In this document: positions 25,800 through 64,000 of the stretch, piece by piece | How the letters are laid out: the number at the start of each line of letters is the position of its first letter | Numbering within the stretch: position 1 is the first letter of the stretch | Source: Nanobdellati archaeon | Lineage (GTDB): Archaea > B1Sed10-29 > JAGVWA01 | Direction of reading: 5' to 3' | DNA length: 64,000 bases | Assembly (NCBI GenBank): GCA_018304505.1 | Contig: JAGVWA010000002.1 | Location: forward strand, 16,567-80,566 | Position numbers and translations under genes: made by a program | Notes under the pieces: model-generated | The model's database searches: none | The model's input: only the letters and a program-made list of their open reading frames with translations | What the model was told of the DNA's origin: nothing

Positions 25800-25800
25800 T

Positions 25801-26030: not shown

Positions 26031-26062
26031 GCTTTATATACTAGTTTTTCTTTTCATTAGGC

Positions 26063-49192: not shown

Positions 49193-51091
49193 ATGAAAAT
49201 CATAGCACTGCACTCGGACTTCATAGAATACAAAGCGGTAAAAGAAGCGATCAAAAACCCGCCAGCGGCCGACAAAGAGCTGCACAAAGTGGAAGATTGC
49301 CTCGTCGTCTTTACGGCTATCGAAAAGCAAGACGAGGGCCACGAGGACACCGTTGCAAAGAACGCAGCATCTGAAATAAAAAAGATCGCGGGCCAGGTCA
49401 AAGCAGATACGGTCGTCATATACCCATGGGTGCACCTTTCGTCAAATCCGTCAAGCCCCGGCAGCGCGCAAAGCGTACTGAAGCTGCTGAACGAGAAACT
49501 CAAGAAAGAATTCAAGACCGTGGAGCAGAGCCCCTTCGGCTGGTACAAGCAATTCGAGATCAAGGTAAAAGGCCACCCGCTCGCGGAACTGTCGCGTGAG
49601 ATAAAAACAGTGGACGTAGAGGACGCTAAAGAAGACCAGGAAGAATCGCAAGCTCTCAAAGCAGAAAAAAAGCTCGTGTCGCACTGGCACATTCTTGACA
49701 TGAACGGAACACTGCATGATATTAGCATTAATGATGATAAAATCAAAGGTTTCGATTTCGCTGGCCGCAAGAATCTGGAGAAATTCACCCGGTATGAGAT
49801 GGCCAAGGTGCGGGTTGCAAAAGAAGAGCCGCCGCATGTGAAAATCATGCGCGACCTCGAACTTGTTGATTATGAACCGGGTACAGATCCCGGGCACTTC
49901 AGGTACTATCCAAAAGGCCGCCTCGTAAAATCGCTACTGGAGGACCTCATCACGAAAGAAGTTATTGACTACGGCGGCATGGAGGTCGAGACGCCGATAA
50001 TGTATGATTACGAGCACCCGTCACTGAAAGCCTACCTAAATAGGTTTCCGGCAAGGCAGTATTCAATACAAACGCCGAACAAAAAAGTATTCCTGCGTTT
50101 CGCTGCATGTTTCGGGCAATTCCTGATGGCAAACCATGCTACGATTTCCTACAAGAACTTACCAATGAGGCTGTACGAGCTGACGCGATATTCGTTCAGG
50201 GTTGAACAACGCGGCGAGCTCACGGGGCTTCGCAGGCTCAGGGCATTTTCGATGCCGGACTGCCATGCCTTTTGTCAGGATTTGGAACAGGCAAAACAGG
50301 AAATGCACGCCCGCTTCGATCTGGCGGAGAGGATACACTCAAAGATCGGATTCAAGCTACCTGACGACTTTGAATTTGCCATTCGAACAACAAAGGAATT
50401 CTACAACGAGAACAAGCCGCACATCATGTCACTGATTGAAAAATGGGGCAAGCCAGCGCTTGTGGAAATGTGGGACGAGAAGTTTTTCTACTACAACATG
50501 AAATACGAGTGGAATTTCGTTGACGCGCTCGACAAAGCCTCGGCATTGACAACAGACCAGGTTGACACGGAAAACGCCAAGAACTACGACATCACGTACA
50601 TCGACACCGAGGGCAAGGCACAGAATCCCTTGATTTTGCATTTCAGCCCCGGCGCAGTAGAACGCATTATCTACGCAATGCTAGAGAAAATCTACATGGA
50701 GAGCCAAAACAACAGCAAGGTGCCCATGCTGCCCATCTGGCTCTCGCCGGCGCAAGTGCGTATAATACCGGTTTCAGAAAAGCAACGAGATTACGCGATC
50801 AATTTGTCGGAGAAATTCAACAACGTGCGCGTTGATGTCGATGACAGGGACGAAAAGCTCGGAAAGAAGATTATGCAAGCTGGAACTGAGTGGGTACCCC
50901 GCATAGTAGTTATCGGAGACAGGGAAGTGCAAGACGGAACCCTGACAGTGACGCTGCGCGAAACCGGCGAGAAGAAACAGATGTCAATTTCCGAATTACA
51001 GAACAACATCGACGAGGCCATGGAAAGCCGGCCGTTCAAGGCCCTCTCACTGCCGAAGCTGCTTTCGAAAAGGCCGGTTTTTGTAGGCTGA
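49193..51091 (+). CDS. thrS: threonyl-tRNA synthetase, archaeal type with N-terminal editing domain
   Basis: Archaeal ThrRS N-domain MKIIALHSDFIEYKAVKEAI...VVIYPWVHLSS. Class II motif 2 FRVEQRGELTGLRRLRAFSMPDCHAFC. C-terminal anticodon-binding domain. 632 aa. Confidence 0.9.
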   Translation: MKIIALHSDFIEYKAVKEAIKNPPAADKELHKVEDCLVVFTAIEKQDEGHEDTVAKNAASEIKKIAGQVKADTVVIYPWVHLSSNPSSPGSAQSVLKLLNEKLKKEFKTVEQSPFGWYKQFEIKVKGHPLAELSREIKTVDVEDAKEDQEESQALKAEKKLVSHWHILDMNGTLHDISINDDKIKGFDFAGRKNLEKFTRYEMAKVRVAKEEPPHVKIMRDLELVDYEPGTDPGHFRYYPKGRLVKSLLEDLITKEVIDYGGMEVETPIMYDYEHPSLKAYLNRFPARQYSIQTPNKKVFLRFAACFGQFLMANHATISYKNLPMRLYELTRYSFRVEQRGELTGLRRLRAFSMPDCHAFCQDLEQAKQEMHARFDLAERIHSKIGFKLPDDFEFAIRTTKEFYNENKPHIMSLIEKWGKPALVEMWDEKFFYYNMKYEWNFVDALDKASALTTDQVDTENAKNYDITYIDTEGKAQNPLILHFSPGAVERIIYAMLEKIYMESQNNSKVPMLPIWLSPAQVRIIPVSEKQRDYAINLSEKFNNVRVDVDDRDEKLGKKIMQAGTEWVPRIVVIGDREVQDGTLTVTLRETGEKKQMSISELQNNIDEAMESRPFKALSLPKLLSKRPVFVG

Positions 51092-51162: not shown

Positions 51163-53112
51163 ATGGGATATCTAGATGATCTTTTAAATAAAAAAGGCAA
51201 GGAAAAGCCACGCGAGGGCGCAGCAGAAGCGCCAGAAGCCGAAGTGCCACCAGAGGCTGCACAGCCGGCGCAAGTTGCAGAGGCACCACAGGCCTCACAG
51301 ACCCCTCAGGTATCACAGGCCCCACCAGTTGAACTGGCAGAGAAGCCTGTGGAAATTGTTGAGGTAAAACCAAAGCCGCTGGCGAAAGCAGCAGCACCTG
51401 CCAAGGTAAGCAAGCCATTAGCGCTTGAACAAAAGCCGTCTGCGCTGGACCAGATCATCAAGCCGAAGAAGCAATCGAAAGCCCTCGAAGCAGTTCTCGG
51501 CGCCAGTGTAAAGGAAGCAGTGGCAGAAGCCAAGCAAATTGCAGAAGCAGAGCAGGCAAGGGAAGAGGCCAAAATAGAGGAGCTCAAAAAAGCAGGCCCC
51601 GGCGAAGGCACGGAAGAGCTCATAAAAGAGGCGGCAGAGGAAGCAAAGGAACTCGAAATCACAGGCAAGAAACACTTATTGACATCATACGGTGACGTTA
51701 AAATCTACAGGGTCGAGGGTGAAGACCTCCCGGTTTATTCGATTCCAGTGATCAAGCCGACAGGGCCCGAGAAAATCATTGTTAACACAATAAAGGAAGC
51801 AGCCACGCGCCTTATCACGATAAGCCCTGAAGAAATCCGCGACCCGGAAAAGCGCCGCGACTTCTTTTTCAAACGCATTCAGGACATCATCGAATCAAGT
51901 CCGGAACTCGGCGTGCCGAGGACCCAGATAAAGTTCTACACAGAAATGGTCGTTAGGGAAATGATAGGCTTCGGTATACTGGATCCGTTGATCAAGGACG
52001 ACAAGCTGGAAGAAATCATGGTCATCGGACCAAGAAAGCCAGTGTACATCGCCCATCGCGATTACGACGTAATGAAGACAAACTTGTTGTTTGCCAAAGA
52101 CGACGAAATCAGGAACATCATTGACAGAATCGCTAGGCAGGTAAACAGGCGTGTAGATCAGTCTGCCCCAATGATGGACGCCCGTCTGATAGACGGCTCA
52201 AGGGTCAACGCAACCATCCCTCCGATTTCGATAGACGGATCAAGCCTCACCATCAGGAAGTTCAAGGCGGACCCATACACTATAGTCGACCTGATTAACT
52301 TCGGCGCAACAGACACAAAGCTTGCAGCGTTTATGTGGCTCTGCGTCGACGGCCTCGGCGCGAAACCGGCAAACATCATAGTTGCCGGCGGAACTGGCAG
52401 TGGCAAGACCACGACGCTGAACTGCCTTGCGAGTTTCATTCCGTCATCAGAGCGCGTCCTGTCCATTGAGGACACTGCAGAACTTCAACTGCCTATTGAT
52501 CACTGGATACGCTTTGAAACGCGAGTCAAGGGCCTCGAGGGCACCGGTGAGGTATCGATGGAAGACCTTCTAAAAAACAGCCTGCGTATGAGGCCTGACA
52601 GAATCGTTGTCGGGGAAGTCAGGGGCGCAGAGGCTGAAACACTTTTTACGGCAATCAACACGGGACACGATGGTTCTGTCAGTACGATACACGCCAACAG
52701 CGCGAAGGAAACTGTAGTGAGGTTGCAAAGCTCACCAATGAACGTGCCGAACATAATGCTTGGCGCGCTGCACTTCATCTTGTTGCAGAAGCGTATTTAC
52801 GATAGGCGCAAGGGCTCAATAAGGCGCTGGACAGAACTCGGGGAGCTGCAGAAAACAGAATCCGGCGCGCCTCAGGTAAACATTCTTTTCCGATGGAACC
52901 CTGTTGATGATACATTTGAGTTTACAGGAACGCCGTCAAGGTACATCCAGGAGCTGCAGCAGTTCACAGGCCTCTCTAGCAAGCAGATCCAGCAAAACGT
53001 TGACGAGAGGGCAAAGATTCTCGACAGGCTCGTTAAAACAAAAACACGCTCCCTTGATGAAGTCAAGGAAGAATTCAGAAACTACTATGCCTCAAAGAGG
53101 GTAAAGAAATGA
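51163..53112 (+). CDS. FlaI/PilB/VirB11-family secretion ATPase (type IV pilus assembly ATPase), copy 2, with an Ala/Glu/Pro/Lys-rich N-terminal extension
   Basis: Walker A GGTGSGKTTT, VGEVRGAEA, TIHANS. Its stop overlaps the downstream TadC-like gene start. Confidence 0.85.
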   Translation: MGYLDDLLNKKGKEKPREGAAEAPEAEVPPEAAQPAQVAEAPQASQTPQVSQAPPVELAEKPVEIVEVKPKPLAKAAAPAKVSKPLALEQKPSALDQIIKPKKQSKALEAVLGASVKEAVAEAKQIAEAEQAREEAKIEELKKAGPGEGTEELIKEAAEEAKELEITGKKHLLTSYGDVKIYRVEGEDLPVYSIPVIKPTGPEKIIVNTIKEAATRLITISPEEIRDPEKRRDFFFKRIQDIIESSPELGVPRTQIKFYTEMVVREMIGFGILDPLIKDDKLEEIMVIGPRKPVYIAHRDYDVMKTNLLFAKDDEIRNIIDRIARQVNRRVDQSAPMMDARLIDGSRVNATIPPISIDGSSLTIRKFKADPYTIVDLINFGATDTKLAAFMWLCVDGLGAKPANIIVAGGTGSGKTTTLNCLASFIPSSERVLSIEDTAELQLPIDHWIRFETRVKGLEGTGEVSMEDLLKNSLRMRPDRIVVGEVRGAEAETLFTAINTGHDGSVSTIHANSAKETVVRLQSSPMNVPNIMLGALHFILLQKRIYDRRKGSIRRWTELGELQKTESGAPQVNILFRWNPVDDTFEFTGTPSRYIQELQQFTGLSSKQIQQNVDERAKILDRLVKTKTRSLDEVKEEFRNYYASKRVKK

Positions 53113-54311
53113 CTGACTTGAAGAAGCTCCTAAAAAAAAGGGGCCCAGTCGAGGAAAAGAAAACCAGCGAACAAAAAATGAAGGAGGCAATCACTAGGCT
53201 TGAGGCAGGTGCATCGGTAGAAGAAGCTGAAGAGGGCGACGAAATCGATAGAAAGGCGCTCGCGAGCATGCTCGGCCGCCTGAGAGAAAAGTACAAGCGC
53301 GAAGGCTACCTCAAGGAGGTTTCTGAAGAAGAATCAGAGCGCTCAAAGCAAATGAAAAAAATAATGGAAGGGGGCGTCATCGGCGTAAAGGAAGCAGGCG
53401 CAGAAGAGCTCTTGGGGGTGCAGAGCCCAATAGTAAAGGTCTTCGCGCAATTCTACTTATCCCTGGAGGCGCCGCTGAAGTTTTTCAGAAACGCGCTGCA
53501 GGCAACCTTTGGAAAAAGCCTCGAAAGAAACCTGATTGCGGCAAGGATGAATTACACGCCAAGCCAATACCTCACGATAGTTACGAGCGCCACAATCATA
53601 ACATGGCTCGTTTATTTTCTCTTCGCAACCCTGTTCATAGTTACGGGTACAGCCGCGCTCGGCCCGCTGATCGCTGGCGCGCTCTTCGCGCCATTCTTAA
53701 TACTGATAGTTGGAATCCTTATACCGAGCAGCAACGCGGCCAAGGTCGCGTCAAACATTGAGAAGGACCTGCCATTTGCGCTGAGGCACATGAGCATCGA
53801 AATCAGGGCCGGTGTCGGTATTTTCAAGACAATGCAGTCGATCGCGGAGTCTGGCTACGGCGAACTGAGCATCGGTTTTCAGAAGGTCCTTAGCGACATC
53901 AGCAAGGGCGTGCCGACAGAAGACGCGCTCGAAAATTGGTCGAACCTGATGGGATCAGAAGCCCTCAAGCGTGTCGTGACGCACATTGTCAGGGCGCTCA
54001 AGACTGGCAGCAATCTCTCAGATATAATGGTGACAATTGCAGAGGACGTGACTTTCGAACGCAAAGCAAAAATCCAGGATTATGCGCAGAAGCTCAACTT
54101 GATGAGCCTGTTCCTGATGATGATCGCCATTGTCCTGCCGGTCATGGCGGGCGTCCTTACCGCCGTCGCCAGTTCGCCCAGCATAACGCGCTTCGTGTCA
54201 TTTTTTGCGGGCTTTGACACGAGCTTCCTAACAGTGATTTACTTCATCATAATTCCGGGCCTTCTTACCATGTTCCTGTTCTTCATCAAGGCGGGAGACC
54301 CGGGAACGTAA
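53109..54311 (+). CDS. type II secretion system F-domain membrane protein (TadB/TadC/FlaJ-like), part 1
   Basis: Hydrophilic N-terminus, 3 TM, cytoplasmic T2SSF-like domain (LPFALRHMSIEIRAGVGIFKTMQSIAE...ALKRVVTHIVRALKTG), C-terminal TM helices. Confidence 0.7.
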   Translation: MTDLKKLLKKRGPVEEKKTSEQKMKEAITRLEAGASVEEAEEGDEIDRKALASMLGRLREKYKREGYLKEVSEEESERSKQMKKIMEGGVIGVKEAGAEELLGVQSPIVKVFAQFYLSLEAPLKFFRNALQATFGKSLERNLIAARMNYTPSQYLTIVTSATIITWLVYFLFATLFIVTGTAALGPLIAGALFAPFLILIVGILIPSSNAAKVASNIEKDLPFALRHMSIEIRAGVGIFKTMQSIAESGYGELSIGFQKVLSDISKGVPTEDALENWSNLMGSEALKRVVTHIVRALKTGSNLSDIMVTIAEDVTFERKAKIQDYAQKLNLMSLFLMMIAIVLPVMAGVLTAVASSPSITRFVSFFAGFDTSFLTVIYFIIIPGLLTMFLFFIKAGDPGT

Positions 54312-54357
54312 CATAATGAAAAATAATGAAAACATGTAATACATCAGATAAAATGAG

Positions 54358-55290
54358 TTGATAAAAATGGCAGAAATTGAAATGACGTCGCAGCAAGGCC
54401 CAATAACAAAAGCGGTAAAGGGCATCATGGGTAAGTACACTGCGGCGTTTGAGTACACGGGCATCAAGTTTCCCCCCCGGCTGGCGATTCTTGGAACCAT
54501 TGGCGCTGCATTTTTCGTTGGCTTGATAACGATTTTGATCGACCCTGTTTTATCGCTGCTGCTCGTTGTTCTCATACTGGACATCGGCATGGGCCTCCCG
54601 TTTTTCCTCGTTGACAAAAAAATCGCACAGCTCGAAGGCAGTTTGCCCGATGTGCTGCATCACATGGGAACCACCCTGAAAACCGGGGGAACTATTGAGG
54701 TTGCGCTTCGCGAAATTTCAGAAGTGGACTATGGCCCGCTGACATTCGAGACCAAAAAGATGCTCAGGGAAATCAATGAAGGCAGGACATTTGAGGACGC
54801 CTTCTTCCGCTTTGCAGATCAGTCAAGAAGCGAGCTAATCAGGAGGACGGCCACTATAATAGTAGCCGCGCGCAGGGCGGGCGGGGGTCTGGTTGATACG
54901 TTGGCGTCAATGTCCGATGACATCCGGGAAATCGCGCGCCTAAAGCGTGAACGCGTTTCGGCAACCGCGATGCCTTTCATGTTCCTGCTCGCAGCCGGCG
55001 TCTTCCTTGCGCCGCTAGTCTTCGGCATAGTGAAATCAGTGCTCGAGATCCTGCTGCAGTCTGCAGTTGATGAGGCAACAAAGGCCCAGAGCGTCATCCT
55101 GCTCAATTCATTCGACACAACCTTCAAGCTCTATCTCGTAATAGAGACCGCGTTTAACACAGTCGGCGCAGTCCTCATCAGGACCGGCCAGTTCACGAAA
55201 TCCATACCCTATCTGCCGTTCACCATGCTGATTTCGTATGTTATATATACCGCAGTATCAACGACATTCCTTTCACTAATCGGGGGGTGA
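54358..55290 (+). CDS. type II secretion system F-domain membrane protein (TadB/TadC/FlaJ-like), part 2
   Basis: TM helices, then a second T2SSF-like domain (LPDVLHHMGTTLKTGGTIEVALREIS...LIRRTATIIVAARRAGG), then C-terminal TM helices. Confidence 0.7.
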   Translation: MIKMAEIEMTSQQGPITKAVKGIMGKYTAAFEYTGIKFPPRLAILGTIGAAFFVGLITILIDPVLSLLLVVLILDIGMGLPFFLVDKKIAQLEGSLPDVLHHMGTTLKTGGTIEVALREISEVDYGPLTFETKKMLREINEGRTFEDAFFRFADQSRSELIRRTATIIVAARRAGGGLVDTLASMSDDIREIARLKRERVSATAMPFMFLLAAGVFLAPLVFGIVKSVLEILLQSAVDEATKAQSVILLNSFDTTFKLYLVIETAFNTVGAVLIRTGQFTKSIPYLPFTMLISYVIYTAVSTTFLSLIGG

Positions 55291-55368
55291 GGAAAAGGTT
55301 GAGGAAAGGTTTATAAACAAATGCTGATTTCATAACTCAGTTATACTAACAATATGGAGGTAAAATGA

Positions 55369-55830
55369 ATGAGCGGAACAAAAGGTCAAGGTTCACTTGA
55401 GTACCTGTTTATCATCGCAGGCGTTTTAGCAGTAGCAGCAATTGCTGTCTTGTTTTTGACAAGCGCAGGAGCAGGCGCAGCACAATCACAGCTAAGAGCA
55501 ACATGCGTCGCAGCAGCGCAACAGTGCGGTTCCTTGCAATTGACTCAGCCAGGCGTAACGTGTCCAAACACCTGCGGCAGGGCGTGTAGCGACCCAAGAA
55601 CCGGCACAGACGTACTGGGTATAGAGGACGTCTGGAATGTCCAAGTGCAGCAACTCGCACCATCAGGAAGATGCTTTAATGAGGATGGTGGGGAGATCCT
55701 TGTTGACGGTGCGCCCATTGATGACCAGGTTACCTGCGAAGACGATAATGGCGGAATCTTCTTCGACAACAACTGCGTACCTGGAACAGCGTGTTACCAG
55801 TGTTCAATAGCAGGGCCAATACCAGCGTAA
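55369..55830 (+). CDS. type IV pilin with archaeal class III signal peptide, Cys-rich
   Basis: MSGTKG|QGSLEYLFIIAGVLAVAAIAVLFL. CxxxxRACSDPRTGTD motif. 153 aa. The N-terminal 60 aa and the underlying DNA are nearly identical to the pilin at 16884. Confidence 0.78.
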   Translation: MSGTKGQGSLEYLFIIAGVLAVAAIAVLFLTSAGAGAAQSQLRATCVAAAQQCGSLQLTQPGVTCPNTCGRACSDPRTGTDVLGIEDVWNVQVQQLAPSGRCFNEDGGEILVDGAPIDDQVTCEDDNGGIFFDNNCVPGTACYQCSIAGPIPA

Positions 55831-55991
55831 AACCAATTATTAATAAAACCGGAAAAGGGGAACGCGTTCCCCACTTCCAATTTAATAACCTAATTCTTAT
55901 TTTATTGACAACTTCACTGTGGGGCAGCTTTTAAACGAACCCAGTTCTTGCCTGAACAAGGTTTTTAAACCACGTGCGCATTCATTACTTC

Positions 55992-57194
55992 ATGCAAAAG
56001 GGCCAGGGTTCACTTGAGTACCTGTTTATCATCGCAGGCGTCCTCGCTGTCGCGTCCTTAGTTGTGCTTTTCTTGGCAAGCAGCGCAGCCCAGAGCGCGG
56101 AACAGCAGATAATAAGCGCGTGTGTCGGCGCGGCTGCTGAGTGCCAAACCCTTAGATTGGGAAACAAAAACCTTGAATGCCCCAATTTGTGCAGCAGGGC
56201 GTGCAGCGACCCGCGCAATGGCCTCGACTTAAAGACAAAGCAGAAGATCTATGACCCGGACACGCAGAAGCTCATCATCTGCCCGCCAGGTTCCGCGTGC
56301 GGGTCATGCAAGGTCGGCAGCATACAACACGTTACACAACAGGAGGCGGTGCGTTTAAGCCAAGACCTGCTGCTGAAAGTCAACGAGCCGGTGGTGCTGG
56401 ACAACGGTTATACTTTACTGTTCACGCTTGAACCATACCCAAGTGATTCAGCACTAACGTTGTTCGCGTTCACGCTAACGGATCTGCAAGGAACCAAACA
56501 TAAGCAAGGCTTCCCAGTAGAGACTGACGACACGCTGATTGAACTGAACCAGAAGCGCATTATTCAGCAGGCTGCGGTGCTGTTTGATACAGTCTCCCCA
56601 GTGCTTGCCATGAATTTTGACGCCATCGCGACGCAGCAGAACAAGCTGATACTGATCGGCATGATCACAGATTCAGTAACAGGGGATGTACTGAGGCTGC
56701 CTAAGCCGACATTGTATCTGAGCCCGTTTGACTGGTCAAAAATTGAGGGGGCATGCTTTGGCGAAGACACGCGGAATTGTGGTACTACAATGGATTCCAT
56801 GGTTGGCAAGGTAGCACAGTTTAGCCCGTATCTTTACTTCACGGCGACACAAGCTACGCATCCCGAAACAGGCATCAGCGGCACAAGGTATGACTTCAGC
56901 ATGTTTCTCTCAAGTACGCTTCTTGATCTCTGTATTGAAAGTGGTGATAGGACTAAATACCCTGATGGGGTGGCGCTTGTGAAGGATTATAAAAATCTCA
57001 ACGACCTTCAAAAGGGGTGCATTGATTTCTATATTTCAGAAAATGGAAACCCGTTTGCTGCAGAGTTATTTGGGCAGGGCACATTCGGGCCCGCAAAATC
57101 ATACCTAGGCGCAACTGTTGCCATCTCAAGCTATCGGGTACGGATCGTTGACATCAAGGGAACGCGGCTTGGCCTGGCGCCAGTGTTCCAGTGA
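55992..57194 (+). CDS. type IV pilin-like protein with class III signal peptide and a large C-terminal domain
   Basis: MQKG|QGSLEYLFIIAGVLAVASLVVLFL, then CPNLCSRACSDPRNGLD. About 400 aa. The track start 55974 is GTG; the ATG at 55992 gives a short leader. Confidence 0.7.
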   Translation: MQKGQGSLEYLFIIAGVLAVASLVVLFLASSAAQSAEQQIISACVGAAAECQTLRLGNKNLECPNLCSRACSDPRNGLDLKTKQKIYDPDTQKLIICPPGSACGSCKVGSIQHVTQQEAVRLSQDLLLKVNEPVVLDNGYTLLFTLEPYPSDSALTLFAFTLTDLQGTKHKQGFPVETDDTLIELNQKRIIQQAAVLFDTVSPVLAMNFDAIATQQNKLILIGMITDSVTGDVLRLPKPTLYLSPFDWSKIEGACFGEDTRNCGTTMDSMVGKVAQFSPYLYFTATQATHPETGISGTRYDFSMFLSSTLLDLCIESGDRTKYPDGVALVKDYKNLNDLQKGCIDFYISENGNPFAAELFGQGTFGPAKSYLGATVAISSYRVRIVDIKGTRLGLAPVFQ

Positions 57195-57422
57195 AATAAA
57201 CCCGTGCTGGTTTAAACTGGTTAACTTCACAAAATCGTTATAAGGAAACCGTGTGCTGGCCGTGACTGCGTTGCCAATAACTCCCATTATCTATAATAGT
57301 GAACGCAAAGTATTTAATGATTTTGTAAACTAGGTATAGTTAAAACCGAGCAATGGAATAAACGGGTTTAAACCCGCGGCTGTTGCAAAATCAATATATA
57401 ATTCGTATGCTATAAAAAGCGT

Positions 57423-58022
57423 GTGTTTCTCAACATCGCGGTGTTCATGCTGCTCGCGCTCGCGGCACTGAACGACATAAAGACAAGGATAATTCCGCCA
57501 TTGTTTTCGCATGTCTTGATAGCAATTGGCATCGTTAGCGTGTTCTTTGAATTCTCGCCAGTAAAAATGCTTCTGCCGATAGTGTTTTATGCTCTCTACA
57601 AGGTTGGTGCGATGGGGGGTGGCGATGCCAAGGTCTTAATGGGCTTAGGCATGCTGTTTTCCCAGCAAGTGCTTGTGATCTTGGGCATCGCGGTGCTCTT
57701 GTCAGGCGGGTTTCTGTTGGCCAGCGCAACGCCTCTCCGGGCTGTTGTGGAGTATGTCATGTCATCACTGCGGAGATTCAGAGGCTCAAAATTATCCCTG
57801 ATGATTGCGCTTTTCATTCTGCGCGAAAACACCATGGCATCGTTGTGGGCGTTTTTAGGCTTCTTTGCGCTCTGGGTTGCTGCTGACGTGTTTTTTTCAT
57901 CAATCAGCAATGCGAGAAAAACACACAGGAAAACCAGCGTGCCGTTCATTCCCTTTGTGGCGATGTCCTTTGCCCTGTGGGCTTTACTGGCTGCATACAC
58001 GGAAATTTGTGTGCTTTGTTAA
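57423..58022 (+). CDS. prepilin/preflagellin peptidase (A24 family, PibD/FlaK-like)
   Basis: Polytopic. First catalytic-Asp context AALNDIKTR and second GGGDAKVL are the two Asp motifs of archaeal A24 peptidases. The GTG start at 57423 places the first Asp at position 18; an alternative ATG is at 57447. Confidence 0.75.
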   Translation: MFLNIAVFMLLALAALNDIKTRIIPPLFSHVLIAIGIVSVFFEFSPVKMLLPIVFYALYKVGAMGGGDAKVLMGLGMLFSQQVLVILGIAVLLSGGFLLASATPLRAVVEYVMSSLRRFRGSKLSLMIALFILRENTMASLWAFLGFFALWVAADVFFSSISNARKTHRKTSVPFIPFVAMSFALWALLAAYTEICVLC

Positions 58023-58174
58023 GCGTAGCGTACAAAAGTATTTTGTTAAGTTTGTTTTACAATATGCATGCATTTCGTAAAGTTTACTTTACAATATGCC
58101 AATGCGACGCCAAATGGGGGCGCTATCGAGGCTGCATGAAGCTTTAAATATGTGCGTTTGTTATCCATAGGTAT

Positions 58175-61100
58175 ATGACGGCCGTACGAAACATCAATGA
58201 GTCGCGTGGACAGTTGTCACTTGAAGTTCTTGTTATTCTAGCTGTCGGCCTAGTGTCAGCGGCCCTCGTCGGCGTGTTCGCGTCAAACTTAATCAGCATC
58301 AGCGAGGGCATCGAGGCCCAGACCGAGGCCTTTGGGGGCGTCGTAGCCGAGACACTGGAGCAGCCAGAGTTCGAGCGGGCACAGCAGTTTCTCCCTGACT
58401 TGACGATTACGGAAAACATCCGGTTTGTTTCGGCAGCGGAAACAGCTGCCGCAGCCGCAGAAAGTGGGGTCATTGGCAGTGCACTTGTTGAAGTAGGGGA
58501 AATAAAAGCCAGTGAGTCGGCAACACTAACACTGACACAAGATCAGGCAACGCAGACAGGCATCAGCGAAATCACAATCAGTGCAGCAAATCAAATCCCG
58601 GACAGGTCACAGGTTACCGTGCAAAAGTTCTCAGACAAACCGGCAACGCTCGCAATCGCGCCGCTGGCTGTGCAAGAAGACGCTGCAATACCCGTGTATG
58701 CGTACCTCGAAATCACAGCAGTGGGCTTCACAAACAATGATGTTGAAGAGGCCACCATCAAGTTCCAAGTAGAAAAAGCGTGGCTCACAGAGAACGGTTT
58801 GTCTGACGCCCAAATCGTGCTGAGCAGGTTCTCTGGTGATGCATGGGCTGAACTGCCGACAACAGTTGTTACTCCAGACGACACTCAGGACGATACGTAT
58901 GTATATTATAGTGCGGTCTCTCCTGGCTTCAGCACCTTCGCGATCACGCCACAGGCGCCAGTACGTCCATCGTCAGTAGTCCCGGTTGCGTTGTGGCAGT
59001 TTAACGGCAACAGCCGTGCTGACTCTACAGGCCAGGCTGGCCAGGTCATTGGCGGGAATCTTGTGTCTGGGCGTTTTGCTGGTGGCCTTGAGTTAACTTC
59101 AGGTAGTGCGACCTTGAATTCAGACTGGTTTTCATCAAGTGGTAGTATAGAGCTTTGGTTTAAGCCTTCGTTGGAATACTCGCCGAGTAGTCCTGCATCT
59201 CAGAGAGCCTATCTTTTTAGTGGTTTTGAAGAGTCTCCTGTTGCCTGGATCCGTGAAGTTAACAATAATCCGGGTGTGTTGTCTGTGTGCATCAAAAACA
59301 CAGCTGGCCAGAATGCATGTGTGAATTCACAGACAAAAGCATGGCTTAAAGGCAGGTGGTATCATCTGGCGGTCACTTGGGAAGGTATTGGTACCACGGG
59401 GATTTTAAAGGTATACGTGAATGGCGTGCTTGAATCTGAGAATCGAAATGCTGGCGTGCCTAAAGCGGGCAGTGTACCTAATAATAAATGGCAATTGGGC
59501 AGAGGCTATGGCGAAACAAAGCCAATAAAGGCTGTGTTTGACGAAGTCGGCATTTACAATGTCGTGAAAAGCACCACTGAGATAGCGGAAGACGCGGCTG
59601 CACACGTGGAGTATGTTTATGTTGCTCCGAGCCTTCCACTTTTAAACGCCGCGCCTGAGCGGGATTTACAAAACCCAGAAATCGAGTTTGCCACGATTCA
59701 GGGAAGCAACGTCTACCTATCCCCCGCAGCTTCCTTCATAAGCACGCCGACACTGCCATCGATTTCAGAATTCACTGATGTAGATCATTTGTTGTCTACG
59801 CAGCTCGGTATCTTCAATTCTTTGACGAAGTTCTATGTTGCTAAATACACAACAGTACAGGGGTTCAAGAGAATCGAGGGATATTACAAGGTGCCGGATT
59901 CAACAGCATCATATCCTTTGTACATTGACCTCAATGGAGACGACTTGGCAGACTATTGGTTTTCGAGGAGCGGAATCGCAAATTGGTATAATAGGTACTG
60001 TGCAAGGACAGACAGGACAGGCTCCTGGCTGTATGGTAGCTCGGCAGGGCTTAAGACCGAACACAATTGTGAACAAGGTAGCGTAGTGACTAATATGGCT
60101 GATAACTATGCTTTTAAATTCCACATAACAACGCGTGACGAGATAAGGGTATCAACAGGGCTGGCAGGCACAGATCCGCTGAAAGACAAAATGACGAATG
60201 CAGTGACGCTGTCTATTCAAGCGCCGCCAACAGCAGGGGAGGTTGCAGAACCTATGCCCTCGAAGCCTGTCGACACCTGCGTTGCAAGTACACTTTCAAC
60301 TATTGCCCCGAATGAGATTAAGGAAAGGGCAGTATTAACACTTGATGGCAGCAAGGATGACTTTGATTGCGCTGACAGGTATAGTTTACAGGGTGATGCC
60401 GATGCACAAAGAAAAATCTACGTTGCTAGGGCAGCTAACACTCGCAAGACCCACGTGCACTTTGACGCGGACATTAATGAACTAAACAACTTTGTGTTGG
60501 CACACGCGTACATTGACATTGACAATGACAACACTGCAGACATTGATATGATGAAGCAATTCTCAAGGTCGCAGGTAACTTCTGGCGGGCAGACAAGCAC
60601 AACAGAACGCACCCTGTACTCAATCAGCTGCTTTAATGCCCGGGCAACTACAAAATGGGAGGTTGGGAACTGCGCAGACCGGGGAGTACAACATACCCAA
60701 ACGGGCGTCAGTTCAGACAAGCCCATAGAAGCCAGTTTCGAACCCAGGTTTCCTTCAATAAAAATAGCTACACAAGAACCGTCAAACATTCAAAGCCCGA
60801 TTCTCAGGGGCACGGTTTATGAATTCTTAACTGGCGTACGAGCTGTTGTAGAGCAGGTGGTTTCAAGGGACATTGTTTCTGCTTCAGCCACCCTGAATTT
60901 GCTGACCACGCTTAACGCGCCGAAGGACTTTAAACTCACCACCCCAATTGCAGGCTTCACTGCAACGTCAGTAAAATCAATAAGCATATCGTCAAGCAAA
61001 CAGTTGTCTCCAGGAAGCATAACCATAGAAAAATTATCCCGCATGCCGGCTGGCCTAACAGACCCCGGGCTAGACAACATCTTTACCAGGCTGTCGATCA

Positions 61101-64000
61101 CTAGCCAGGGCTTTTACATTGCAGACGTTACCCAGGCGACGCTTGAATTCGACATACCCAAGACTTGGCTACAAGCTAATATACCGAGGACTTGGCTACA
61201 AGCTAATAATGCAGGGTCACAAGCCATTTCTGTTTATCGGTATGAGGTAGATAAGTGGACAGAATACAAAGCTGAATTGGTTTCACAAGACATAGCAACA
61301 GCGTCCTTCAAAGCTGTGTTGCCCGGCTTATCAGTGCTCGTCATTGGGGAACGCACAGTACCAACAGCACCTGCAGCTCCAACAGAAGCAGAACCTGCAG
61401 CAGAGGAGCCTGAAGTGCCAGCAGTTACAGCACCTGCAGTAGGCACAGCAGTATCAGCAACGCCGCGCGGTGAACCCATTTCAGGGAACCTTGAATTCGA
61501 TGTGTACAACATCGGCAGGGTTGATTATCCGCCAACGCGGCTGCCAGTGTTAGCAGCTTCTTCCAAGCCCCGGGTTTTGCAATACCCCCAAATCGGTTTC
61601 CAAACCCCTGCGCAAACAACTCCAGAGCTTACTGTAAGCGACTACACCAAAATCCAGGATGCCTTGGCGCTGGAGCAAAACACATTTTCAGAGCAAGAAC
61701 TCATTATTGCCGCGCAGTACGCGAAGCAAAAATGCACCGAAACAGGGGCCCTTGGACCGAGCGTATCAGTAATCAATACGCCATTCACCAACCTTAACGA
61801 CTTGGCAGGTCCAAGAAACGGTGAGGCTAGCTGGTACATAACCAATACAGGCAGCACTGCTGCTACAGGCGTGCAGATAAAAATCGACGTTAGGGTATTC
61901 TTTGATGGAGGCAGGACCTTTACAGCAATAGAAAAGAGGGACGTCCCTGCAGGGCAAACCATTGTCATAAACCTTGCGGATCCATCAATATTATATAGGA
62001 TAACTCCAAGCGGCTCCCCAGTTCGGTGGAGTGATATGTTAACAACCCTCAGGGGAATAGACACTGTTACTATGACAGCCACAGTAGCAAATGACCCGAA
62101 CCAAAATGACAACAGGGGCACAGCGAAACTAACCTCAACGTCACCCTACACCTGGCAACTAACCTCGCCAGACTTCAACACTCAGGTGGCTTCGACAGTG
62201 CAAGTTGATTACTGTCGGTACCAGCCGCTGTTGCTCGTTGCAATTTTAAAAAGCCCTGACCAATACGGCTTTAACTTAGAATCTTTCCTGCAGCAGCGCG
62301 TGGCAGAGCAACTCATAACGCAGGCAGAAATCGTTGTGCCCGGCCGTGGAGCCCTTGTAGACGCCTCACTGTACACCGCAGAGTGCTACGCAGAGCTGCC
62401 GTTGTTGACAGAAGAAGGAGGGGCAGAAACAACAGACGAAGGGCAAGCGCAGTCCAGTGCGGTTTGCCAGGGCCAGCCAATAGCGTCAGTGCGTGTTCCT
62501 TCGACACAAGCAGGCACGTTCAACACGTTGAGAATGCAGAACCTCGAGCTATATACAGGGCAGGACTACGTGCTTGTTGTGGACCCCCAAGATGGTTTGG
62601 TTGAGTCAAGGGAAGACAACAACGCCATTCGATTTAAAGGCGCAGACCTTGTGGCGCTAAGACCTGTCGAGGCGCCATTAATTAGCCTGCCGCGGGAAAT
62701 AATCGACATACTTCTGCCGCCGACAGCAGGCGCAGTAGGCGACGTCACGGTAGGCAGCTTCGACACAGCAACATCGTATCAACTCAACGACCCCTTCGGC
62801 GGCGCGTACTCGATTGCCTCGCTGGATGCGAAAATCGCGTCGTTGCAGGGTGTTCTGTTGCGCACTGAGGACTTATCCTTTACCCGTGCTGCAGGGGAGA
62901 ACATCCAGGATCTTGTATTTCAGGATAATATGCTATCCATGCCCGTCAAGCCATCAGCGCTGCCCCAGGGAATTGACACCACATCTTTTTTCTATGTTAA
63001 CTCAGCATGGCAGCGGGACAGCTATGGATTGCAGTTTATAGACAAGTCACAGCAAGGCGTTTCTGACGGGCTGAGTAAAATAGATTACTCAGGGCTCGGA
63101 ATACAGGATATACATTTCAGTGACCCGAATAACGGCGTGATTGGGGGGTTGATTATATCAGGTGGAAATACATATGCAATGCTTGCAATTACTGAAACAG
63201 GTGGTGACGATTGGGTAATTTACTTGGTCCGTGAAGCGGCAACACATACGGTTCTTGTAGGTCACAGTTTAGGCAAGCCAGTTGCCTTGCTTTCAGACAG
63301 CCGCCTAGTCTACATTGAGGACGGCAAGGTCAAGAAATCAATAGACTTGGCAAATCTCGGCGGCGGATTTGACATGATGGCCACATCGAGCACGGATGTA
63401 TATCTTGGGGAAAAAGCCACAGGCAAGGTTTACAAAATCAGCGCGCTTGACGCAACGCAGGCAAAACTTGATTATCAAGCAGTGCAGTCAAATGCAGAAT
63501 CGCTAGCTGGATTGGCGGGAGCGCGTGGGCTGTTCGCAAGTGATGATCGTGACATTGGTTATCCTATAATAGAGTTCCAATTTCCTTCTCTGTCAACAGG
63601 AAGACGCATTGTTGACACCAGCGCTCAACAAACCACCACGCTAGGCGCGCAGCGCACACTTGTCGCGAACTCAAAGAAGCGCGACAACGCGATCCTCGTT
63701 TTGAACAACGTGAAATCAACAGGCGGAACGCGAATTACGGGCTACACAGTTCGATTGAAGGACTCTACCAAGATCCTCGCCTCGGGCCTCGCGTTGCAGC
63801 CCTCGATTTCGCAATTACTAATATCACTGCCATTGCAGGCCGTCGAATTCAACAGCCAGGGTATTACTGATCAGCCCTTGCAGATCACGTTCCAGCAGGA
63901 GAACGGCGCAACCACAACCATTGATGGGCCGAAGGTGTACGACATCGCTAAGGACACAAGGTCCAAGGCTGCCCTGGATTTGCTTGAGCGCGACATTAGC
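58175..64000 (+). CDS. giant (>1940 aa, 3'-partial) pilin-like surface protein with class III signal peptide and a LamG/concanavalin-A-like jelly-roll domain
   Basis: ATG at 58175, then MTAVRNINESRG|QLSLEVLVILAVGLVSAALVGVFA (Q+1, S+3, E+5 pilin motif). LamG-type motifs SDWFSSSGSIELWFKPS...YLFSG...WYHLAVTWEG...LKVYVNGVL. Frame 2 was read by hand with no stop through position 64000. The track lists only short artefactual ORFs in the other frames. Confidence 0.65.
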   Translation, partial: MTAVRNINESRGQLSLEVLVILAVGLVSAALVGVFASNLISISEGIEAQTEAFGGVVAETLEQPEFERAQQFLPDLTITENIRFVSAAETAAAAAESGVIGSALVEVGEIKASESATLTLTQDQATQTGISEITISAANQIPDRSQVTVQKFSDKPATLAIAPLAVQEDAAIPVYAYLEITAVGFTNNDVEEATIKFQVEKAWLTENGLSDAQIVLSRFSGDAWAELPTTVVTPDDTQDDTYVYYSAVSPGFSTFAITPQAPVRPSSVVPVALWQFNGNSRADSTGQAGQVIGGNLVSGRFAGGLELTSGSATLNSDWFSSSGSIELWFKPSLEYSPSSPASQRAYLFSGFEESPVAWIREVNNNPGVLSVCIKNTAGQNACVNSQTKAWLKGRWYHLAVTWEGIGTTGILKVYVNGVLESENRNAGVPKAGSVPNNKWQLGRGYGETKPIKAVFDEVGIYNVVKSTTEIAEDAAAHVEYVYVAPSLPLLNAAPERDLQNPEIEFATIQGSNVYLSPAASFISTPTLPSISEFTDVDHLLSTQLGIFNSLTKFYVAKYTTVQGFKRIEGYYKVPDSTASYPLYIDLNGDDLADYWFSRSGIANWYNRYCARTDRTGSWLYGSSAGLKTEHNCEQGSVVTNMADNYAFKFHITTRDEIRVSTGLAGTDPLKDKMTNAVTLSIQAPPTAGEVAEPMPSKPVDTCVASTLSTIAPNEIKERAVLTLDGSKDDFDCADRYSLQGDADAQRKIYVARAANTRKTHVHFDADINELNNFVLAHAYIDIDNDNTADIDMMKQFSRSQVTSGGQTSTTERTLYSISCFNARATTKWEVGNCADRGVQHTQTGVSSDKPIEASFEPRFPSIKIATQEPSNIQSPILRGTVYEFLTGVRAVVEQVVSRDIVSASATLNLLTTLNAPKDFKLTTPIAGFTATSVKSISISSSKQLSPGSITIEKLSRMPAGLTDPGLDNIFTRLSITSQGFYIADVTQATLEFDIPKTWLQANIPRTWLQANNAGSQAISVYRYEVDKWTEYKAELVSQDIATASFKAVLPGLSVLVIGERTVPTAPAAPTEAEPAAEEPEVPAVTAPAVGTAVSATPRGEPISGNLEFDVYNIGRVDYPPTRLPVLAASSKPRVLQYPQIGFQTPAQTTPELTVSDYTKIQDALALEQNTFSEQELIIAAQYAKQKCTETGALGPSVSVINTPFTNLNDLAGPRNGEASWYITNTGSTAATGVQIKIDVRVFFDGGRTFTAIEKRDVPAGQTIVINLADPSILYRITPSGSPVRWSDMLTTLRGIDTVTMTATVANDPNQNDNRGTAKLTSTSPYTWQLTSPDFNTQVASTVQVDYCRYQPLLLVAILKSPDQYGFNLESFLQQRVAEQLITQAEIVVPGRGALVDASLYTAECYAELPLLTEEGGAETTDEGQAQSSAVCQGQPIASVRVPSTQAGTFNTLRMQNLELYTGQDYVLVVDPQDGLVESREDNNAIRFKGADLVALRPVEAPLISLPREIIDILLPPTAGAVGDVTVGSFDTATSYQLNDPFGGAYSIASLDAKIASLQGVLLRTEDLSFTRAAGENIQDLVFQDNMLSMPVKPSALPQGIDTTSFFYVNSAWQRDSYGLQFIDKSQQGVSDGLSKIDYSGLGIQDIHFSDPNNGVIGGLIISGGNTYAMLAITETGGDDWVIYLVREAATHTVLVGHSLGKPVALLSDSRLVYIEDGKVKKSIDLANLGGGFDMMATSSTDVYLGEKATGKVYKISALDATQAKLDYQAVQSNAESLAGLAGARGLFASDDRDIGYPIIEFQFPSLSTGRRIVDTSAQQTTTLGAQRTLVANSKKRDNAILVLNNVKSTGGTRITGYTVRLKDSTKILASGLALQPSISQLLISLPLQAVEFNSQGITDQPLQITFQQENGATTTIDGPKVYDIAKDTRSKAALDLLERDIS

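Follow-up and report, generated by a model that had tools for sequence, protein, structure and literature searches.

The 64,000-nt stretch of archaeal DNA analyzed here (the window) runs out within a gene whose product, judged from its sequence, is probably an adhesin held at the pilus or at the membrane by a pilin-type helix. The gene comes from a tiny archaeon of the symbiotic DPANN type and belongs to an otherwise ordinary cluster that, on its gene content, is an archaeal System 1/clade 1 (Epd-like) type IV filament locus. We put at about one half the probability that this 2,383-aa protein is an extracellular, lectin-bearing adhesin carried on a pilin-type N-terminus and displayed by the System 1 pilus machinery, either at the filament tip or in the membrane. 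Attachment to host cells is the presumed lifestyle of DPANN archaea and CPR bacteria, and little is understood of how they recognize and hold those hosts. A pilus locus with its own giant, putatively pilin-anchored lectin protein provides a concrete candidate for a host-binding molecule of an uncultured archaeon. Type IV pili are linked to episymbiosis in Saccharibacteria, according to two reports (PMC12206443, PMC10633639).

Gene content of the locus

All coordinates given here are window positions on the + strand. The locus begins with a FlaI/TadA-like ATPase gene, followed by two T2SSF genes, two genes for Cys-rich class III pilins, an A24 peptidase gene, and the giant ORF. This order was proposed in a first-pass annotation and is borne out by Pfam matches; the interpretation of the cluster is likewise supported: it specifies a type IV filament and brings together class III pilins, a platform divided between two genes, and an A24 peptidase of its own. 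The secretion/assembly ATPase (51163–53112, 649 aa) matches PF00437 (T2SSE, 168 bits), has a readable Walker A sequence, GGTGSGKTT, and carries an N-terminal low-complexity extension of ~170 aa. FlaI and TadA are its top NCBIfam matches, both under cutoff (FlaI scores 331 bits, below the equivalog cutoff), and its best database matches are 49 to 54% identical and come from Iainarchaeota-like MAGs and Methanobacterium. The TadC/FlaJ-like platform protein is encoded in two halves. The first (53109–54311, 400 aa) is a single PF00482 T2SSF domain (69.5 bits) that aligns with the N-terminal half of UpsF in NCBIfam, and the second (54358–55290, 307–310 aa; PF00482, 79.9 bits) aligns with the C-terminal half of ArlJ/FlaJ and UpsF.

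The first pilin (55369–55830, 153 aa, 10 Cys; PF04021, 34 bits) begins MSGTKG/QGSLEYLFII..., where the slash marks the predicted cleavage site. The second (ATG at 55992, ending at 57194; 400 aa, 12 Cys; PF04021, 29 bits) lies in an ORF that opens with a GTG at 55974 (406 aa) and has a C-terminal extension of ~290 aa. Alignment reveals a pilin module of ~110 aa common to the 153-aa pilin and two paralogs. A third Cys-rich paralog with the QGS(L/M)EYL motif, identified by PF04021 (32.5 bits), alignment, and motif scan, is encoded at 16884–17804, 34 kb from the locus, and is probably a further substrate of the same machinery. The A24 prepilin (class III signal) peptidase (57423–58022, 199 aa) scores 35.4 bits against PF01478 (cutoff 26.5). 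Both catalytic-type Asp residues are readable (LND18IKTRIIP and GGGD68), the protein weakly matches the N-terminal part of EppA in NCBIfam, and a search of PDB sequences with it gave no match.

The locus had been described as complete and ending in the giant gene. Beyond the window, 3′ of that gene, seven more genes follow, namely, six small class-III-like genes and one for a membrane protein; of the 14 genes of this archaeal type IV filament locus, the window holds the first half. The products of the six small genes have N-termini with [KR]G and a hydrophobic stretch; one of them reaches the PF04021 cutoff and also bears a CARDB domain. The giant gene is located between the peptidase gene and these minor-pilin-like genes, on the same strand, which we count in favor of a pilus-linked adhesin.

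Relationship to System 1 loci

A platform split in two is the hallmark of System 1 (bioRxiv 10.64898/2026.04.22.720090), and in the clade 1/System 1 model two TadC proteins are accompanied by five or more minor pilins, a peptidase dedicated to the system, and large adhesins of LamG-like type (PMC4858521; bioRxiv 10.64898/2026.04.22.720090). The present locus fits this model, with a FlaI/TadA ATPase, two T2SSF genes, a dedicated peptidase, and six minor-pilin-like genes. With clade 1/System 1 loci, exemplified by that for the Epd pili of Methanococcus maripaludis and found in Methanobacteriales, Thermococcales, and some DPANN, it shares the two-gene platform, the dedicated peptidase, substrates with Q+1 and an acidic +5 residue, at least five minor-pilin-like genes, and a large concanavalin-fold protein. 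It differs in gathering the ATPase, pilins, and accessory genes in one cluster, in its short peptidase (199 aa, compared with the 334 positions of the NCBIfam EppA model), and in the giant protein itself, which, unlike System 1 DUF2341 proteins, bears a class III signal of its own, is 2,383 aa long, has PF13385 rather than DUF2341, contains PGF-pre-PGF domains, and has no detectable ortholog. DUF2341 was not among the Pfam matches of the giant protein at E ≤ 5, where PF13385 was found instead; the two are of the same concanavalin-type jelly-roll kind.

For comparison, 47 GTDB and 61 JGI loci were chosen by ATPase kinship (identities of at most 54%, barring one 306-residue partial match at 61%). 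None of the 108 holds a class-III-like ORF of at least 450 aa (GTDB loci) or at least 700 aa (JGI loci), and the giant gene is therefore not a conserved part of the System 1 machine. The Methanobacterium loci hold ATPase and TadC genes only.

The giant ORF is intact

The giant ORF opens with an ATG at 58175 and runs to the end of the window at 64000 with no stop in frame, covering the first 1,942 of 2,383 codons, in agreement with its earlier description as an ORF of >1940 aa running off the window. The full-length protein (NCBI MBS3060142.1) agrees with the window at every one of these 1,942 residues, and two ENA assemblies of the same population, independent of each other, carry strain variants of 2,430 and 2,431 aa. 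The portion beyond the window contains neither an interrupting stop nor a frameshift, either of which the first-pass annotation had named as grounds against a single giant gene. The frame is kept across three independent assemblies, with in-frame indels only, and we count this in favor of the adhesin reading; the strain variants differ by 2 to 8 substitutions, too few for dN/dS.

Class III signal and N-terminal anchor

The giant protein begins MTAVRNINESRG/QLSLEVLVIL..., as previously noted, and a class III signal is credible on both a near-cutoff match to PF04021 and the determinants recognized by EppA. The predicted leader (58175–58210, 12 aa) would be cleaved after G12. Its R-2 and G-1, together with Q+1 and E+5 of the mature protein, are determinants reported for EppA substrates, in which Q+1 is required for cleavage and an acidic +5 residue is typical (PMC4187195). 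When only the first 50 aa are used, PF04021 scores 21.7 bits (E = 1.9e-4, aa 10–34; cutoff 23.7); on the whole protein, it scores 14.7 bits.

A pilin-type hydrophobic helix of 30 residues, QLSLEVLVILAVGLVSAALVGVFASNLISI (58211–58300), is predicted to follow, from Kyte–Doolittle analysis and identity to the pilins. The Kyte–Doolittle maxima of the protein all fall at aa 12–24, with means of 2.2 to 2.8 over aa 13–40, and no hydrophobic segment was found outside aa 12–42. A C-terminal PGF motif or transmembrane anchor is absent, the protein ending ...DKDYSLARGLG. Over its first 25 residues, the mature N-terminus is identical to the three QGS pilins at 10 to 12 positions, compared with 1 to 6 for the minor-pilin-like proteins. 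When all six frames of the window were scanned, [KR]G followed by Q-x-S-x-E and a hydrophobic stretch turned up in the giant ORF and the three pilins and nowhere else.

These data bear on the alternative that this is simply a giant surface protein, Sec-secreted or held by a signal anchor, that the A24 peptidase does not process and that has a class-III-like N-terminus and a place in the locus by coincidence. The PF04021 score is under the gathering score, relatives of the PGF-pre-PGF and LamG domains normally have Sec-type signals ending in AxA, and the protein is an orphan, leaving the conservation of the motif without support. However, a hydrophobic stretch of 30 residues exceeds the length of the h-region of Sec signals, which is shorter than that, no AxA-type site comes after it, and the exact R-G-Q-x-S-x-E motif is confined, in the window, to the pilins and the giant ORF. 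Moreover, because none of 149 domain relatives has a class III N-terminus, the signal appears to have been specifically acquired, in a gene that adjoins the peptidase gene. We regard this alternative as very unlikely.

In an AF2 model of aa 1–560 (55-sequence alignment), a helix is placed at aa 17–35 with low confidence; aa 31–96 are of low confidence (pLDDT <50 at aa 31–62 and 77–86), and the first confident fold begins at ~aa 97. No recognizable pilin head domain was found after the helix by Pfam, in the AF2 model, or in the PDB, and a Foldseek search of this model against the PDB returned no match at E ≤ 1e-3 and no pilin match.

Domain architecture

The recognizable domains of the giant protein are two copies of PGF-pre-PGF and one LamG domain, and ~75% of its length is without a detectable homolog. 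The first PGF-pre-PGF copy (aa 101–261, 58475–58957) scores 149.7 bits against a local HMM and is modeled by AF2 with pLDDT >90. The second (aa 916–1060, 60920–61354) scores 68.8 bits and aligns with the first with a Smith–Waterman score of 123; together, they match TIGR04213 at 126.6 bits. A LamG/concanavalin-A-like lectin domain, called in the first-pass annotation and confirmed here, occupies aa 312–471 (59108–59587; PF13385, 65.1 bits). AF2 modeled it with moderate confidence, compared with high confidence for PGF-pre-PGF, and Foldseek matched it to neurexin LNS2 with a probability of 0.97 but with E = 0.07. Two weakly related modules with YIDxxxDxxAD motifs (aa ~560–740 and ~745–915, 59852–60919) share a weak repeat of ~60 aa (Smith–Waterman score of 50, compared with 30 ± 4.3 for shuffled sequences; 0 of 300 shuffles reach 50) and have no Pfam match and no homolog. 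A Pro/Thr/Ala/Glu-rich linker (61355–61495), recognized from the sequence and by family comparison, comes after the second PGF-pre-PGF copy, and aa ~1421–1484 (62435–62626) form a weak CARDB-like segment (PF07705, 15.6 bits, E = 0.019, below cutoff). The content of LamG, two surface-protein PGF-pre-PGF domains, and weak CARDB is of the adhesin type, and we count it in favor of that function. The previous description of the protein as repetitive is weakly true: it applies to the two PGF-pre-PGF copies and the single ~60-aa repeat, and BLAST self-comparison found nothing else.

Searches with the rest of the protein were largely negative. A word-indexed search with the full sequence returned only its own cluster and one paralog, the latter through PGF-pre-PGF. 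Searches with aa 476–1000 and with the final 1,200 aa returned nothing, negatives that are weak because the query's own cluster was missed as well. In an exhaustive HMMER search with aa 1–1200 against 1.84 billion representatives, the best 150 of 4,147 matches were single-domain matches only, and among these 150 the architecture of the giant protein was unmatched. Pfam searches with ten overlapping 251-aa pieces spanning aa 470–2431 gave only subthreshold CARDB and NTCP5_P3_N, and a PDB sequence search with the giant protein gave a best E of 0.18. For the last 1,200 aa, single-sequence AF2 modeling gave no usable structure (pLDDT 32). A BNR/Asp-box propeller was considered for the C-terminal part and rejected, with a single Asp-box-like motif found.

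The position of the first PGF-pre-PGF copy, adjoining the N-terminal anchor, is the mirror image of the family arrangement. Of 144 family matches, 134 have the domain near the C-terminus, and in 121 a transmembrane segment comes after it. PGF-CTERM surface glycoproteins, such as MBS3060431.1 from the same genome, share with the giant protein PGF-pre-PGF domains of 40–48% identity and a Pro/Thr-rich linker after the second copy. They differ in having an N-terminal Sec signal and a C-terminal domain and transmembrane anchor, in place of the class III N-terminal anchor predicted here. In family members, the linker precedes the C-terminal membrane anchor, and the same-genome paralog has the identical order of domain and linker and then a transmembrane segment; no anchor follows the linker of the giant protein. 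The giant protein may illustrate how an adhesin originates, a Sec signal and C-terminal anchor having been swapped for a class III N-terminal anchor.

Since PGF-pre-PGF is normally membrane-proximal, a protein that simply stays in the membrane would also fit. It is possible, although somewhat doubtful, that the giant protein is an N-terminally membrane-anchored adhesin for which the class III signal serves processing and anchoring only, as for the sugar-binding proteins of the Sulfolobus bindosome, with no polymerization and with PGF-pre-PGF as a membrane- or S-layer-proximal pedestal. The placement of that domain directly after the anchor, where the family has it directly before a C-terminal anchor, speaks for this possibility, as do the lack of a detected pilin head domain, the absence of the gene from all related loci compared, and the widespread occurrence of class III signals on archaeal nonpilin binding proteins (bioRxiv 10.64898/2026.04.22.720090). 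Against it, the gene sits between the peptidase gene and six minor-pilin genes, and the helix keeps Glu at +5 and is close to those of the main pilins. Bindosome proteins are also thought to need the TFF machine for surface assembly, so that permanent membrane anchoring overlaps with our preferred reading of an adhesin displayed by the pilus machinery, and an anchor-proximal PGF-pre-PGF domain is compatible with either pilus entry or membrane anchoring.

Avoidance of glycosylation sequons

The mature giant protein has no N-glycosylation sequons. The whole protein contains one N-x-S/T, located within the leader, compared with 15.8 ± 3.6 expected; other ORFs in the window contain 61, compared with 58.1 expected, and the S-layer-like surface paralog from the same genome contains 96, compared with 31 expected, a three-fold enrichment. 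Such avoidance implies extracytoplasmic exposure of the giant protein. Its completeness, in a genome whose other surface protein is packed with sequons, marks it as a clear, so far unexplained, sign of selection, and it sets the protein apart from the sequon-enriched PGF-CTERM glycoproteins.

The same counts argue against a structural rather than adhesive role, in which the giant protein would belong to the envelope or a sheath, in the manner of an S-layer protein, and help the filament to cross or dock at the cell wall. PGF-pre-PGF is typical of archaeal envelope glycoproteins, including the same-genome paralog, and S-layer-like proteins are listed as accessory to archaeal type IV pilus loci (PMC4858521). 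A structural role of this kind is nonetheless highly improbable, given zero sequons where that paralog is enriched, the lack of a C-terminal anchor, the presence of a lectin domain, and a gene that is not conserved across related loci, which is unexpected for a structural component.

Comparison with known adhesin systems

Large DUF2341 (LamG-like) proteins have been proposed as tip adhesins of clade 1 pili (Makarova, Koonin & Albers 2016, PMC4858521; Sivabalasarma & Albers 2026 preprint), LamG proteins have been tied to type IV pilus loci in DPANN (Golyshina 2017, PMC5498576), and bacteria are known to have modular pilins that bear lectins (Raynaud 2021, PMC8179133). In light of these studies, the tip adhesin suggested in the first-pass annotation is less novel than was implied. 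The general design is already known, and the giant protein, known from sequence, appears to be an unusual version of it, an orphan of a single lineage.

LamG-domain proteins are expanded in DPANN. A parallel by description is ‘Ca. Mancarchaeum’ Mia14, which has LamG jelly-roll proteins beside a pilus locus of the Methanococci/Methanobacteria type; a role in host contact was proposed for them, and neither a class III signal nor giant size is reported in that account (Golyshina et al. 2017, PMC5498576). Bacterial modular pilins share with the giant protein a class III signal and pilin helix with a grafted binding module. In Streptococcus sanguinis, PilC carries a concanavalin-A-like lectin module and PilB a vWA module; PF13385 is among the commonest grafts, and modular pilins have a predicted or demonstrated tip location and a role in adhesion (PMC8179133; PMC9934059). 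The giant protein differs in its archaeal signal (PF04021, with no N-methylation motif), in its lack of a recognizable pilin head, and in being ~3 times longer than the largest protein in the bacterial survey (860 aa). Sulfolobus bindosome substrates and further archaeal binding proteins with class III signals, which are processed by the prepilin peptidase and depend on the TFF machine, similarly place a large nonpilin ectodomain on a class III signal. Unlike the bindosome, the present case involves lectin/adhesin domains and a gene within a pilus operon; no solute-binding protein family was detected by Pfam or NCBIfam, and no ABC transporter genes are present in the locus. The PilY1/PilC tip adhesins of bacterial type IVa pili are likewise large, have a modular binding region at the N-terminus, and are encoded amid minor-pilin genes. 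PilY1 is a nonpilin with a C-terminal β-propeller (PF05567), whereas the giant protein has its own predicted pilin-type anchor and lacks this propeller at E ≤ 5 (full protein) and E ≤ 10 (ten overlapping pieces).

Proposed mode of display

If the giant protein is an adhesin displayed by the pilus machinery, its basic leader of 12 residues would remain on the cytoplasmic side once the protein had inserted into the membrane, and the adjacent A24 peptidase would cleave after Gly12, making Gln13 the new N-terminus. The hydrophobic helix that remains, 30 residues long, has Glu at +5 and matches the co-encoded pilins at half of its positions; it would then be the sole anchor. In the least certain steps, the ATPase and split platform might extract this helix along with the six downstream minor-pilin-like proteins, and together these proteins might form a priming or tip complex of the Cys-rich pilin filament. 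The ectodomain of ~250 kDa, ordered as a PGF-pre-PGF pedestal, the LamG lectin, and then ~1,900 unassigned aa that are weakly CARDB-like, would be kept away from the cell and bind a host or surface glycan.

Counted against a pilus adhesin are the absence of a homolog, the PF04021 score below gathering, the absence of a recognizable head domain, the membrane-proximal position of PGF-pre-PGF in its family, and the lack of a comparable gene in 108 loci. To our knowledge, a ~250-kDa subunit would also far exceed any pilin shown to assemble. We offer only as an unlikely and tentative extension that the protein could be a "mega-pilin," a glycan-free class III protein of ~250 kDa polymerized as the first (tip) subunit of the pilus, with the PGF-pre-PGF pedestal replacing the head and the LamG ectodomain recognizing the host. 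Such a protein might have arisen when the C-terminal anchor of a surface protein was relocated to the N-terminus and two genes were fused, and would be kept sequon-free to prevent its own glycans from masking or occupying the lectin.

Sequence features in and near the giant ORF

The sequence TTTACAATATGC occurs twice in the gap 5′ of the giant ORF (58056–58099), in exact copies spaced 32 bp apart, and nowhere else in the window. The copies are possibly promoter or regulator sites, for which the evidence is weak because at least two matches also occurred in 9 of 100 shuffles. Scans for sigma-70 promoters and terminators gave counts not above those of shuffles, the sigma-70 model being uninformative for an archaeon.

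The strain variants differ in a variable patch at nt ~62368–62415, with six substitutions and a 3-nt indel. We rejected the hypothesis of a diversity-generating retroelement target because no template repeat, that is, no second copy of the patch, was found in the window or in the extended locus sequence. The 27-bp internal duplication reported earlier is confirmed as a tandem repeat (61154–61208) of 2.0 copies with 92% match (TRF score 96), which encodes KTWLQANIP/RTWLQANN at aa 996–1012. It amounts to an in-frame insertion of 9 aa within the conserved ‘SWL’ motif of the second PGF-pre-PGF copy and is present in every strain variant.

Organization of the pilus gene cluster

The plus strand between 51163 and 64000 carries the gene series described in the first-pass annotation. 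It encodes a secretion ATPase (649 aa; PF00437, 168 bits), two neighboring genes with one T2SSF domain apiece, the first corresponding to the N-terminal half of UpsF/FlaJ and the second to the C-terminal half, two Cys-rich proteins that pass the class III signal profile PF04021 (153 aa, 34 bits; 400/406 aa, 29 bits), an A24 peptidase with both aspartates visible (199 aa; PF01478, 35.4 bits; LND18IKTRIIP, GGGD68), and a giant ORF, open over 1,942 codons from its first start codon (ATG, 58175) to base 64000. The annotation had also called the locus complete and ending in the giant gene; this was incorrect, because the cluster carries on downstream in L054, a contig from another assembly that extends past the end of the window. 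There, the giant gene is followed by six small genes, whose products start with a basic residue, Gly, and a hydrophobic stretch (KG↓QIAIEF; RG↓QVSFEL, with a CARDB domain; KG↓LISLD; RRG↓IIFTMD; RNG↓VVFTLD; GRG↓FIFSG), and by the gene of a 295-aa protein with a signal peptide, coiled coil, and C-terminal TM segment, after which an unrelated opposite-strand gene marks the end of the cluster. Among the 14 genes of the cluster, the giant one is central, with the peptidase on one side and the minor-pilin-like block on the other. One of the downstream minor-pilin-like proteins, of 238 aa (L054 18214–18930), whose class III signal reaches the PF04021 cutoff and whose C-terminal CARDB adhesion-type domain scores 57.5 bits, is a predicted second, small modular pilin of the same locus.

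The Cys-rich QGS(L/M)EYLFIIAGVLAVAA pilin family has a third member, encoded 34 kb from the locus (16884–17804, plus strand; PF04021, 32.5 bits). All three paralogs have a Cys-rich module of ~110 aa in common and carry unlike C-terminal extensions, so that these "pilins" are themselves modular.

Archaeal type IV filament loci of clade 1, or "System 1," which spans Methanococcus Epd pili, Methanobacteriales, Thermococcales, and some DPANN, are described as combining a platform divided between two genes, a peptidase of their own, substrates marked by Gln at +1 and acidity at +5, numerous minor pilins, and a large concanavalin-fold protein (PMC4858521; bioRxiv 10.64898/2026.04.22.720090; PMC4187195). 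We call the window cluster a probable member of this type, the ATPase being placed by identity matches. In keeping with this type, the nearest relatives of the ATPase, 49 to 54% identical, were in Iainarchaeota-like MAGs (Ca. Forterrea and others) and many Methanobacterium genomes; none closer was found in one genome per GTDB species or in JGI metagenomes. Unlike in the 2016 clade 1 model, DUF2341 was not detected in the window's locus, and PF13385 was found instead. Among 108 related System 1 loci, none encoded a class-III-like ORF of at least 450 aa (47 GTDB loci) or at least 700 aa (61 JGI loci), and Iainarchaeota-like loci have small pilin-like genes where the giant gene would sit. The giant gene is lineage specific, added to a machine that is itself conserved.

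Integrity and strain variation of the giant ORF

Exact-sequence look-up of the peptidase identified other assemblies of the locus, in which the complete giant ORF encodes 2,431 and 2,430 aa (two ENA metagenome contigs) or 2,383 aa (NCBI MBS3060142.1, annotated [quoted passage not shown] which equals the window translation over all 1,942 residues). A stop or frameshift splitting the ORF, set beforehand as grounds for abandoning it, was found in none of these full-length copies. Across 5.8 kb, the variants show 2 to 8 substitutions and a pair of in-frame indels (3 and 141 nt). The 141-nt (47-aa) segment, at ~63069/63070, is missing from the window strain and occurs in two other assemblies. In one assembly, 6 substitutions and a 3-nt indel are packed into ~50 nt (~62368–62415), the remaining gene being almost identical. 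On L054, the polymorphism sites are 14101–14340 and 14851–15090. A template repeat, as for a DGR-type origin of the variable patch, was sought and not found.

A probable class III signal at the N terminus

The giant protein begins MTAVRNINESR-G↓Q-L-S-L-E-VLVILAVGLVSAALVGVFASNLISI, and PF04021 scored its first 50 residues at 21.7 bits (E = 1.9e-4), narrowly missing the gathering score of 23.7 bits. In experiments with M. maripaludis, cleavage by EppA depends on Gln at +1, and an acidic +5 residue is typical of EppA substrates (PMC4187195); the giant protein has both features. When all six frames of the 64-kb window were scanned for [KR][GA] ahead of a 20-residue hydrophobic run, a Q-x-S-x-E sequence was seen only in the giant ORF and the three pilins, the distant paralog included. 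Over its first 25 mature residues, the giant protein matches the three pilins at 10 to 12 positions, versus 1 to 6 for the minor-pilin-like proteins encoded downstream; when only positions 6 to 25 were counted, 195 of 10,000 composition-preserving shuffles reached the pilin identity level. Residues 12 to 42 form its only hydrophobic segment, and the C terminus (...SLARGLG) has no anchor. A hydrophobic run of 30 residues exceeds the length of a Sec h-region, and direct reading found no AxA site after it. We regard a class III signal as well supported, short of proof, and a coincidental signal-anchor as improbable.

Domain architecture and origin

A profile built from family members detected PGF-pre-PGF domains at aa 101–261 (149.7 bits) and aa 916–1060 (68.8 bits); NCBIfam TIGR04213 scored the pair jointly at 126.6 bits. 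The LamG domain noted earlier was recovered at aa 312–471 (PF13385, 65 bits), as was the 27-bp tandem duplication (61154–61208, two copies, 92% match), whose 9 residues are an insertion within the conserved "SWL" motif of PGF-pre-PGF copy 2. A pair of modules bearing YIDxxxDxxAD motifs, weakly related to each other, lies between LamG and copy 2. After copy 2 comes a Pro/Thr/Ala/Glu linker, of the kind that precedes the C-terminal membrane anchor in MBS3060431.1, a surface-protein paralog from the same genome, and then ~1,280 more residues, where the sole Pfam match is a subthreshold CARDB. AF2 (55-sequence alignment) gave pLDDT >90 for PGF-pre-PGF and about 57 to 79 for LamG, the helix and next 60 residues being uncertain; Foldseek against the PDB returned weak LNS/lectin-type matches only. 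The C-terminal 1,200 residues yielded no usable model (pLDDT 32).

Among the best 150 of 4,147 matches (1.84 billion representatives), none spans more than one domain of residues 1 to 1200. A class-III-like N terminus is absent from all 149 relatives listed, whose N-terminal signals, where present, are Sec-type, ending in AFA, ASA, or similar. In 134 of 144 relatives, PGF-pre-PGF ends at most 150 residues from the C terminus, with a hydrophobic anchor next in 121. Thus, the giant protein has kept the domain beside the anchor, with both shifted to the N terminus. The anchorless internal domain and linker suggest a trace of two former genes that fused.

Depletion of N-glycosylation sequons

The 2,383-aa protein contains a single N-x-S/T sequon, N7-E-S, in the predicted leader and none in the mature protein, against 15.8 ± 3.6 expected from residue shuffling (0 of 500 shuffles as low). 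The 27 other window ORFs together have 61 (58.1 expected), and MBS3060431.1 has 96 (31.4 expected), a threefold enrichment. Because neutral sequence would match expectation, the absence implies that the giant protein meets the N-glycosylation machinery and that selection disfavors sites, which supports a predicted extracytoplasmic location. Possible causes are protection of the lectin against masking or self-binding, or transit via the assembly machinery or S-layer.

Proposed function and precedents

We infer, with a probability of about 0.5, that the giant protein is a modular pilin-signal adhesin. The neighboring peptidase would cut it after Gly12, and the pilin-like helix would hold it; together with the six minor-pilin-like proteins, it would be loaded by the ATPase and split platform as part of the filament's priming or tip complex. 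The Cys-rich pilins would make up the filament, and the lectin-bearing ectodomain would thereby be displayed away from the cell. In the main rival reading, which is less probable, the same processed protein might remain a membrane adhesin anchored at its N terminus, in the manner of bindosome proteins. A pedestal domain close to the anchor and the failure to recognize a pilin head favor this reading; the operon position, Glu at +5, and pilin-matched helix favor the tip model. A structural role in the envelope seems very unlikely. As a candidate host-binding molecule of DPANN, the protein is well suited to experiment; it comes from a single lineage, and each functional step is inferred.

Modular pilins that carry lectins are well documented in bacteria, where PF13385 is one of the modules most often fused and the longest protein surveyed has 860 aa (PMC8179133). 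Large LamG-like proteins have been proposed as tip adhesins of this very archaeal pilus clade (PMC4858521), a DPANN archaeon was described in which LamG proteins are associated with pilus loci (PMC5498576), and non-pilin binding proteins with class III signals are reported to be widespread in archaea (2026 preprint, bioRxiv 10.64898/2026.04.22.720090). The general design is therefore already known; the new elements are its combination within a single archaeal protein of 2,383 aa, the orphan status, the mirrored PGF-pre-PGF topology, and the sequon avoidance.

Other features in and around the cluster

The pilus ATPase gene is immediately preceded by a threonyl-tRNA synthetase gene (49193–51091), as it is in the distant Iainarchaeota-like loci L007, L009, and L049; the synthetase types differ (632 aa with an archaeal editing domain in the window, ~580 aa in the Iainarchaeota-like loci). 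The ATPase has a low-complexity Ala/Glu/Pro/Gln/Lys-rich extension of ~170 aa ahead of its conserved domains (51163–51680), and a 9-bp unit is repeated five times within this N-terminal region (51281–51325). The System 1 ATPase of Iainarchaeota-like and Methanobacterium loci is accompanied by a conserved ~390- to 410-aa polytopic membrane protein with the motif GLIPG(L/I)H.N (L007 17335–18510, L049 17133–18296, L016 7284–8516). The 152-bp gap before the giant ORF holds an exact 12-bp direct repeat, TTTACAATATGC, in two copies (58056–58067 and 58088–58099; 32 bp spacing), which may be a promoter or regulator site, with weak statistical support. L054 encodes another large surface-type protein (24973–27296; 1,110 aa, weak CLIPPER match), whose gene lies outside the pilus cluster, ~7.7 kb farther downstream than the giant gene.
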